A stretch of DNA of 64,000 nucleotides, taken from the NCBI GenBank assembly GCA_964016885.1, contig OZ024741.1, positions 278,070,001 to 278,134,000 of the forward strand. The letters are read 5' to 3'. Both the position numbers and the translations under genes were made by a program. A model generated the notes under the pieces. The model was not told the origin of the DNA and searched no databases. It was given only the letters and a program-made list of their open reading frames with translations. This DNA is from Eledone cirrhosa (lineage: Eukaryota). This document shows positions 45,236 through 48,041 of this stretch, piece after piece; position 1 is the stretch's first letter, and each line of letters opens with the position of its first letter.

Positions 45236-48041
45236 ATCATCATCATCATCATCATCATCAACGTTTAACGTCCGTGTTCCACGCTTGCATGGGTTTGGAC
45301 GGGGGTAGTCCCACTTGAGGCAAGAGTGATTGTCTTGCTCGCATAGGACTGTCTGGCAGGTTTTCTACAGTTGGATGCCCTTCCTAACACCAACCACATT
45401 TACAGTGTGGGTCTGGGAGGTTTTTACCGTGTTGCCTACACGGCCACATTACAGCGTGGACTGTGTGTTTTTTTGTCGTGACACCTACACGATCTCATTT
45501 GTTTCGGCCTCGATGGCGCGGCACCAACATAACTTTACATAGAACGGGGTGGTGTGGATCGGGTGGGGGTGGGGGTGGTGGGACGGGGTGTATTTTGTTA
45601 GAGATGCCTACTGGCTGGAGTAGGTTTTACTATATATTTAGGTAAGGCGGGTCTTCTCTGTTACTGAGTACCGCCAAAGGTCTCGGTCCAGTGACATTGT
45701 CTTGGAGAGGTGTAAGTGTGTGATGTCGGAGTTTATCAGCTCGTCCCAGGTTTTTCTAGGTCTGCCTATTCCGTGACTACCGTCTATCTTTATTGCCCTG
45801 CACTTTGTTATACAGCTATCGACTTTCATGCGCATCACGTGTCCATACCAACGTAGCCTTCTCTCGAGTAAACAACATCTGATCCCTCTTATCTCTAATT
45901 TTTTCCTTAGTTCGTTTATGCTTTGCCGTTCACGTATATTACTGTTACACATCCAGCGGAGCATGCAAGCTTCGTTCCTCTCTAGTCTGCGTATATCCTC
46001 TGCACACAATGCCCAGGTCTCACTGCCATGCAGCATTGCTGTTCGTATGCAGGCATCGTACAACCTGCCTTTCATTTTTAGTGAGAACCCTTTAGCAGCT
46101 AATAGTGGTATAAGCTCTCTGAACTTTTTCCAACCAGTTCTGACTCTAGCTACAGTACTTTCAGAGCACCCTCCCCCACTGCTGATTTTATCGCCCAGGT
46201 AACGGAAGCTGTCCACTATTTCTATAGAACCCTCTGCGCAATTGAAAGAGCTAGTAGTTTGTGGGCACTTGCTGCTACTTATTGCACCAGAGCACCGGCC
46301 ACATGTAAAATCTATGTTCTTAGTTAGCTTACCTGTGATCCCACTACATCTTTTATGCACCCATACTTTGCATTTAGGACATAAAATGGAGTTTCTACCT
46401 ACGCCTTTCCTACACACCGAGCACGACCATTTCCCAGAAGGGACCGCCGCCTTGTTTTCTTTCCTACAAACTAGTACTTTGGTCTTAGCCAGGTTAATTT
46501 TAAGTCCTTTTGACTCTAGGCCGTGCTTCCATGTTTGGAATTTCTTCTCTAGCTCGGCCATTGATTCCGCTATGAGTGTCAGGTCGTCTGCGTATAGGAG
46601 TTCCCATGGGCAGCCTGTCTTGAACTCCTCTGTTATAGCCTGAAGGGCAATAATAAATAGTAGTGGACTGAGAACAGAGCCCTGATGGACGCCGACTTTT
46701 ACGCTAAACTCTTCACTATATTCGTTGTTAATTCTAACCTTGCTGACTGTTTCTTTATACATGGCTTGTATAGCCCTCACAAGCCATTCGTCAACGCCTA
46801 GTTTTCTAAGAGCCCACCAGATAATGGAGCGGGGGACTCTGTCGAAGGCTTTCTCCAAGTCGACAAAAGCTAAGTAGAGGGGTTTACCTTTAGCTAGGTA
46901 CTTCTCCTGTAGTTGTCGTACTATGAAAAGAGCGTCTGTGGTACTTTTGCCTGACACAAACCCGAACTGCATTTCATCTAGGTCAATTCTCTCTCTGATT
47001 AGTTGCGCTATTACTCTTTCCGTGACCTTCATGACCTGGTCGATTAATTTAATGCCTCTATAGTTACTCCTATCTAGGGCGTCTCCTTTACCCTTATAAC
47101 AGTTAACGATGATGCTGCTATGCCAGTCCTTCGGAACAACCCCGTTCTGTACGACTTGGTTAACTATGCGGGTGACCATGGTGTGTCCCACCGTGCCAGA
47201 TGCCTTCAGCATCTCAGCAACTATTTCCGAAGGCCCAGCCGCCTTACCAGTCTTCATATCCTTGATTGCCTTACTTATTATACTCCCCTCGACTAACACT
47301 GCTGGTCCCTCTATTGGGTCGATATGGGGGAGACTGCCTTTCTCCCAATTATTCTCCTCATTTAGAAGCCTTTCATAGTGACACTTCCAAGCTACCTTCT
47401 TATCAGCATCGGTGATGGCAAGTGTGCCATCGTCGTTTAGTACACACTTCTCCCCGACAATATCACGGTTTTCCTTGACGCATTGCCTAGCAATCCTGAA
47501 CACCTCACGTTTTTGGTCATCGCGTTGTAGAACATGCTTGAACTTTCTTTCCTCAGCTTCCCTTCTTGCTAAGTACACTTGTCTCCTAGCTTCCCTCCTG
47601 GCCACTTGATAGTCCTCTCTACTTCCCCCATCCCGCCATACTTTCCAAGCCTGCTTTTTGGCCTTAATTGACCCCTCCACCTTACTGTTCCACCACCATG
47701 TTACTCTCCTCCTGCCTACAGGCCTGCTCCAGCCACAGACCTCGTCTGTCGCCAACAGCAGGTTTGCTTTCAGAAATTCCCACTCTCCCTCTATATTGTC
47801 CGACTCTAAATGTTCTTCCTTACTGTCGAAAGCATCAAGTAATATGCTTTGAAATTTATTCCTGGCTGTGGGGTCCTTTAGCTTCCATATTTTCCTCCTG
47901 AGGATAGTCCTCTTCTGTTGTCGAGTACGTCTCGTCCTGACTATGAGGTCGCTAATTATCAGTCTATGTTGGGAGGTGCATTCTTCATGGGGGAGGGATT
48001 TAGTGTTAACAACAGACACTCTGTCACGTCTTCTGGTAAGG
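45236..48041 (-). mobile_element. Young RTE-clade LINE copy C, 2.8 kb, 5'-truncated within the APE endonuclease
   Basis: Uninterrupted ORF, ~400-bp 3' UTR and (GAT)n tail; flanked by microsatellite on both sides. Confidence 0.96.

Follow-up and report, generated by a model that had tools for sequence, protein, structure and literature searches.

What does a zinc finger do in the middle of a reverse transcriptase (RT)? The question is raised by a 64,000-nucleotide stretch of the Eledone cirrhosa genome (assembly GCA_964016885.1, contig OZ024741.1, positions 278,070,001 to 278,134,000 of the forward strand), referred to here as the window. An earlier note on this DNA had described a complete C4HC3 PHD-type finger inside the RT of an RTE-type long interspersed nuclear element (LINE) and had suggested that it steers integration. 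We confirm that the finger is a PHD domain inserted in the RT and reject a chance match. Sequence comparisons indicate that it is an ancient, clade-defining insertion of one RTE-type branch, and we somewhat favor a role as a docking module that would keep the enzyme on target chromatin while target-primed reverse transcription proceeds.

The peptide quoted in the earlier note was recovered exactly by translation at 46292-46423, within a stop-free minus-strand frame from 45641 to 48046. Both the ligand spacing (C-x2-C-x10-C-x2-C-x4-H-x2-C-x14-C-x2-C) and the tryptophan two residues ahead of the histidine are as described there. The finger begins 54 residues downstream of the catalytic YADD and lies between RT motifs 6 and 7. 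The linker between these motifs measures 91 residues instead of the roughly 80 first estimated, and the expectation that it is normally short agrees with the 25 to 31 residues of finger-less RTE-type proteins. Against a cut-off of 24, the Pfam PHD model (PF00628) scored 33.4 bits (E 4.7e-8) on the isolated 77-amino-acid piece, 28.1 bits in the full-length copy P0122, and 23.7 bits, slightly below the cut-off, on the truncated 800-amino-acid open reading frame (ORF). Together with the ligand pattern and the PHD fold matches described below, these scores establish a complete C4HC3 PHD finger. C1, RING, and FYVE identities were dropped in favor of PHD: C1 and RING gave lower Pfam scores that stayed under their cut-offs, C1 produced one sequence match only (E 4e-4), and FYVE reached Z 3.9 at rank 46 in a VIA structural comparison.

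Fold prediction, proposed earlier as a check, returned a PHD fold with ligands that are kept across subfamilies. The AlphaFold model of the full protein has a mean predicted local distance difference test (pLDDT) of 87, with 85-93 over the finger, lower confidence in the linkers, and intact RT strands on both sides; its best structural matches are L1 ORF2p and R2. For a finger-only model of 62 amino acids (pLDDT 73), every top-10 Foldseek row listed was a PHD finger (with TAF3, AL3, ARID5, and Pygo among them), and the best VIA match was Pygo (Z 6.1, root mean square deviation 2.6, 53 aligned residues). A core aromatic residue (F/Y) stands two residues before the seventh ligand in 202/202 homologues. 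From the ligand pattern and the model, we infer that two zinc ions are held in a cross-brace.

The carrier appears to be a young, high-copy, single-ORF LINE with an endonuclease (APE) and an RT. We call it RTE-type because of its architecture (a single ORF with APE and RT, a short 3' untranslated region [UTR], a tandem-repeat tail, and 5' truncation), the tree described below being one without curated RTE references, and the assignment leans partly on motifs that we take to be those of RTE elements. The copy in the window is 5'-truncated near 48040, with most of the endonuclease gone, and is therefore not itself autonomous; the open frame that extends to 50347 is a read-through of microsatellite rather than coding sequence of the element. 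Using the motif 5-7 region as a query against the 3.0-Gb genome, we obtained 74,550 first-look candidates, which are not copy numbers, and all 150 candidates that were scored are 100% identical over 159 amino acids. Twenty loci were picked for long open frames, and 40 random 10-kb stretches were sampled in addition. The full-length ORF is a single frame of 1,056 amino acids (P0122, locus L038) that encodes APE, RT, and PHD (Exo_endo_phos plus RVT_1), and a 1066-amino-acid open frame is common to 8 of the 12 loci listed. Further subfamilies at 95% and 65% identity, found in the random 10-kb stretches, also bear the finger. Tails of (GAT)4-9 are present in 45 of 46 distinct loci, and the 5' truncation points vary. 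The 0.5-0.9 kb upstream of the ORF, read by eye, consists of repeats and microsatellite, and the true 5' end is not fixed. In full-length copies (L032-L038, L045, and L049), the 5' UTR itself contains a (CT)n(TA)n tract as well as blocks that repeat internally. A search of sequencing runs listed no RNA data that hold the element, a result that says nothing about its expression.

The earlier note considered the domain long-standing in this lineage. Its age stands, as does its conservation between subfamilies, and the finger remnants reported in an old copy near 11913-12425 are present (53% identity over 111 amino acids, with stops and frameshifts). The finger reaches far beyond this lineage, and homologues in other hosts reject a lineage-specific novelty. 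A search with the finger region returned 305 proteins; of the 121 looked at (the query and its 120 best matches), 120 show the strict ligand pattern. The named hosts are Octopus bimaculoides, which has the nearest named homologue (61% over the region), the cnidarian Hydractinia, and the catfish Neoarius. In the ESM Atlas, 19 of the 30 nearest named clusters are RVT_1+PHD; Nematomorpha, Mollusca, and Cnidaria are the recorded sources of a few members. At 50% identity, the finger profile matched 970 clusters with E values no higher than 1e-10, which would make the finger a diagnostic character for a large RTE-type branch, and 4,950 clusters with E up to 1e-3, a number that will include host PHDs. 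Among the best 150 of the profile matches, 123 have RT flanks; two host-like PHD proteins were seen, and most of the other 27 resemble, by eye, fragments of the same elements.

Searching with RT motifs 1-6 only gave 1,175 proteins, and the strict pattern occurs in 104 of the best 120. With relaxed spacing, 115 of these keep all eight ligands; of the other five, four hold part of the finger and one is a truncated protein without the whole stretch. None of these best 120 shows a clean loss in which the short linker is restored. Across 208 related proteins, all eight ligands are kept in 202. Seven proteins (P0142, P0166, P0183, P0193, P0197, P0205, and P0209) have three to five residues instead of two from the histidine to the next cysteine, with the ligands all kept. 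A search with L125, an RTE-type element of metagenome origin that lacks the finger, yielded 120 proteins, mostly near-copies from one catfish genus; the 114 with both motifs have the short linker and no finger. A tree of RT sequence cut off after motif 6 (34 finger and 30 finger-less proteins; five rows dropped as too short or missing a motif) separates the two sets at 100/100. Since the tree is unrooted and the sets came from separately seeded searches, a single gain is allowed but not proved. One finger-bearing RT, P0132, is filed at NCBI under a bacterial metagenome-assembled genome and probably reflects contamination with host DNA.

Conservation in the N-terminal half of the finger is comparable to that of the catalytic core. 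In a 94-protein alignment, the eight ligands and Asn806 are invariant. Across the larger homologue set, which was partly gathered with the finger in the query, mean column identity is 0.67 in the N-terminal half of the finger, 0.66 in RT motifs 1-5, and 0.49 in APE; the linkers flanking the finger reach 0.26 and 0.16. A comparison of nonsynonymous (dN) and synonymous (dS) change, another check suggested earlier, points to purifying selection: against the sister subfamily, the 46 codons of the finger differ by five nonsynonymous and eight synonymous substitutions (dN 0.047, dS 0.35, dN/dS approximately 0.13). Ratios among young copies were set aside because these copies decay neutrally after insertion, and dS was saturated in comparisons with L087, L091, and L092. 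We consider it highly improbable that the finger is merely tolerated as a passenger or serves a purely structural purpose without binding a ligand. It does hang on variable linkers, and its finger-less relatives are functional families, but the cage positions described below and all ligands are kept across several phyla despite saturated synonymous sites, and the best RT-only matches include no clean loss.

The place of the insertion suggests contact with the target. In R2Bm, the 6a loop (residues 672-677), located between motifs 6 and 7, reads upstream target DNA, and its deletion blocks nicking (PMC10499050); 6a of a vertebrate R2 wedges into target DNA as well (PMC12180492; papers cited here by PMC number are drawn on in part). 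When a finger-less RTE-type RT is aligned to R2Bm, motif 6 ends at residue 665, so that 6a begins approximately 10 residues past the motif-6 lysine. In P0122, this lysine is residue 775 and the variable insert begins at approximately 782-785. Judged by this offset, without superposition, the insertion point of the finger appears to be that of the R2 6a loop, which would mark 6a as a position where an entire folded domain can be accommodated. The earlier placement of the finger next to the RT active site is in line with an insert at the offset at which R2 touches target DNA.

Which ligand such a finger would hold is less clear-cut. A tryptophan before the histidine is a mark of methyl-lysine readers and not of all PHDs. 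The finger profile has its best match in Pygo PHDs (E 1e-7), and the fold searches likewise put H3K4me readers at the top. Pygo1 builds its K4me cage from W366, Y341, and D352 over a base of V350 and A356, and its binding depends on I357 and E360 (PMC2726290). Trp794, Val803, Ser807, Ile808, and Trp816 of the finger align to Pygo Y341, V350, A356, I357, and W366, and the corresponding positions in 202 homologues are aromatic in 190, V/T in 198, S/A in 199, I/V in 199, and W/Y in 202. The hydrophobic cage of an H3K4me-reading PHD (Y341, V350, A356, and W366 of Pygo1) is therefore kept. The finger is also as basic as the earlier note had it, with a median net charge of +6 in 192 proteins. The groove thus appears to be under selection though the usual acidic face is gone, and histone, DNA, and non-histone ligands are all possible. 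A predicted complex with the genome's own unmodified 30-amino-acid H3 tail scored 0.00; methylation was unmodelled, and the result is not used as evidence.

A kept hydrophobic groove that has lost the histone-specific acids would also suit a protein-interaction module, with the groove taking a histone-mimic or methylated peptide of a non-histone host factor (in repair, replication, or nuclear import) or of the element's own domains. The fold matches include PHDs bound to non-histone partners (MLL4-TET3 and PHF2-VRK1). We regard this explanation as rather unlikely, as the position beside the nucleic-acid path favors target contact.

The 3' end of the element bears on another explanation. Its stem-loop covaries in the window copy and 16 related loci (alignment A3): 92.7% of cells are paired, double changes occur in five of nine pairs, and none of 500 shuffles scored as high on three of five measures. 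The structure is likely an RT recognition signal, and Rfam holds no real match to it. In finger-bearing elements, the stem-loop, which shorter repeats in the genome have too, precedes AAAC and then the repeat tail. The finger could bind the element's own RNA, for example this stem-loop, or the RNA:cDNA duplex, in place of an ORF1 chaperone, and help with template choice or processivity. Its basic charge, the covarying stem-loop shared by finger-bearing elements, and the single ORF, in whose full-length product Pfam found no C-terminal CCHC knuckle, speak for RNA binding. Against this, the finger-less L125 likewise has one ORF and a terminal hairpin, the conserved surface is a hydrophobic groove instead of a fixed basic patch, and the equivalent loop of R2 contacts DNA. 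RNA binding is accordingly an unlikely main function, if a shade less so than the protein-interaction module.

The insertion sites of young copies seem at first to favor recognition of (TA)n or alternating purine-pyrimidine DNA by the finger as the cause of a preference for microsatellites. A TA hexamer occurs within the first 12 nucleotides of 23 of 45 young 3' junctions (51%) compared to 7.1% of random positions, the first base is a purine at 45/45, and many 5'-truncated copies are flanked by TA on both sides. However, because the tail has AT at its end and pairing with the primer is possible, the fair TA background is higher, namely, 21% after any AT and 30% after AT plus a purine, and the residual excess is 1.7-fold (p 0.002). 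Among finger-bearing elements of other hosts (metagenome contigs), under a looser 55-nucleotide test, 4 of the 23 loci that could be scored have TA close to the tail compared to 34 of 45 here, although TA hexamers are approximately 100-fold rarer in those hosts; 12 of the 35 loci were skipped, and many contigs may be collapsed repeats. A search of the literature for microsatellite targeting yielded nothing useful. The link to (TA)n/(CA)n targets drawn in the earlier note is therefore weak. The finger is unlikely to be a (TA)n reader because the preference shrinks under the microhomology control and is mostly absent in other hosts, and we give little credence to it as the cause of the microsatellite preference.

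We return to docking on target chromatin, which we hold to be slightly better than an even bet. The finger would face the target duplex, as R2 6a does, and its basic surface would contact nucleosomal or linker DNA. The conserved aromatic-Val-Ser-Ile-Trp groove may accept a methyl-lysine histone tail, e.g., H3K4me, and the local TA/purine-pyrimidine preference would be set by the APE nick and tail-primer pairing, not by the finger. Within this reading, methyl-lysine recognition of the H3K4me type is a tentative possibility, and docking through DNA only is slightly more doubtful. Steering of integration by the finger is offered as a hypothesis.

Several observations weigh against such docking. 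No Asp or Glu is among the common residues at the D352 and E360 equivalents in the 202 homologues, and the finger has a median of 1.5 acids and 8 basics. As the pocket face of Pygo is acidic whereas the finger carries positive charge, electrostatics would disfavor a basic histone tail. The Foldseek E-values for the 62-amino-acid model all exceed 0.001, and its VIA Z values are middling. Promoter targeting left no sign in 34 flanks of young copies, a weak test: GC content (0.37 compared to 0.38) and observed/expected CpG (0.51 compared to 0.64) do not differ significantly, and the flanks are low-complexity more often than random DNA. In L1-type APE elements, the target DNA may lie in the opposite orientation from that in R2 (PMC10830420), and the 6a geometry might then not carry over. 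RTE-type families that lack the finger amplify well too.

The features of the window are collected in the following table.

Features of the finger-bearing element and its relatives in the 64,000-nucleotide window
Feature	Position	Strand	Remarks
C4HC3 PHD finger	46292..46423	-	Cys796-Cys839 in full-length P0122; translation, Pfam PHD, fold matches
ORF of 5'-truncated copy	45638..48046	-	End of APE, linker, RT with finger, thumb, C-terminus; approximately residues 255-1056 of the full-length protein
Whole motif 6-7 insert region	46247..46480	-	Beta strand after motif 6, variable N-linker, finger, variable C-linker
RT motif 6 (GLKINLAKT)	46481..46507	-	Aligns with motif 6 of R2 and L1
RT catalytic YADD motif	46583..46594	-	Pfam RVT_1 E 3e-32
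RT motif 7 (FRYLG)	46193..46207	-	Weak alignment to R2 KYLG
Putative methyl-lysine cage positions	46361..46429	-	Trp794 (46427-46429), Val803, Ser807, Ile808, Trp816 (46361-46363); aligned to Pygo
(GAT)8 tail, then TA/CA microsatellite	45236..45259	-	
Two-helix stem-loop, conserved, end of 3' UTR	45270..45302	-	Covariation in 17 sequences
Second long copy, 99.86% identical	53015..55814	-	Finger 54071-54202; frameshifted upstream; within local duplication
Short 5'-truncated copy	50015..51250	+	Finger 50133-50264, His to Asn
Duplicate of short copy	57793..58417	+	Finger 57912-58043, His to Asn plus frameshift; ends at assembly gap
Old decayed relative with finger remnants	11913..12425	-	tblastn

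The His-to-Asn change in the fingers of the two short copies probably reflects decay after insertion. A 6.9-kb block at 43814-50638, which holds a long and a short copy, is repeated at 51553-58417 with 96% identity and is either a tandem duplication or an assembly artifact beside the gap at 58418-58617. The window is animal DNA rich in TA/CA microsatellite. It begins with a 54-bp minisatellite (1-1372; 25.6 copies, 95% matches) and contains a short open frame at 6049-6324 (+) that, by eye, resembles what we take to be a GIY-YIG endonuclease fragment of a Penelope-type element, as well as an old fragment of a more distant RTE-type thumb region at 8003-8257 (+; 27% identity).

The role of PHD fingers in LINEs is an open question, and here the PHD is built into the catalytic protein. 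In the part of their paper drawn on here, Metcalfe and Casane (2014, PMC4120745) were aware of no functional work on LINE PHDs. We found no description of a PHD inside an RTE RT in the literature searched, a scope outside which Repbase Reports and most subscription papers lie, and the parts covered of PMC9004415, PMC8392823, PMC3391268, PMC7617806, and bioRxiv 2026.05.21.726589 do not describe a PHD inside an RT. Public databases automatically annotate many such proteins as RVT_1+PHD, so specialists may have noticed the finger. Since the element has a single ORF and numerous young copies that are intact and identical, whether a LINE reads chromatin can be tested directly with point mutants. 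We entertain only tentatively that a pan-animal LINE clade carries a working methyl-lysine reader on its 6a loop that couples a histone mark to target-primed reverse transcription. If true, this would be a LINE counterpart of chromoviruses and would provide a natural site, tolerant of grafts, at which LINE-based gene insertion tools could be retargeted.

Target choice by APE-type LINEs is mainly ascribed to the endonuclease, and chromoviruses, which are long terminal repeat elements, carry a chromodomain at the integrase C-terminus. The shared feature with the latter is a domain of chromatin-reader type fused to the integration machinery of a retrotransposon; the type of element, the fold, and the location at the end of the integrase rather than within the RT differ. 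With the H3K4me-reading PHDs of Pygo and TAF3, the finger shares the fold, the ligand pattern, four of five K4me cage positions, and the T3-pocket Ile, whereas it lacks the D352/E360 equivalents, has a shorter loop 1, and is net basic instead of acidic. The octopus element RTE-2_OV (Petrosino et al. 2022, PMC9115989) likewise has one ORF of approximately 1,050-1,110 amino acids with endonuclease and RT and is young and high-copy, but it was reported with a C2H2 finger, not a PHD; compared by description only, it may carry the same finger under another name. The R2 6a loop likewise lies between motifs 6 and 7, with a matching sequence offset, but is a short, base-contacting loop of an element with a restriction-like endonuclease (RLE), whereas the insert here is a folded 44-residue domain in an APE-type element. 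PHDs in LINEs are indeed known from ORF1 of CR1/L2, as the earlier note stated, and in CR1, L2, and Crack, they lie in ORF1 or in the N-terminus of ORF2 before APE (PMC4120745, PMC3708506). As in those elements, a PHD finger occurs in a LINE, where it has been proposed to aid general genome targeting; here, in a different clade, it sits inside the RT palm.
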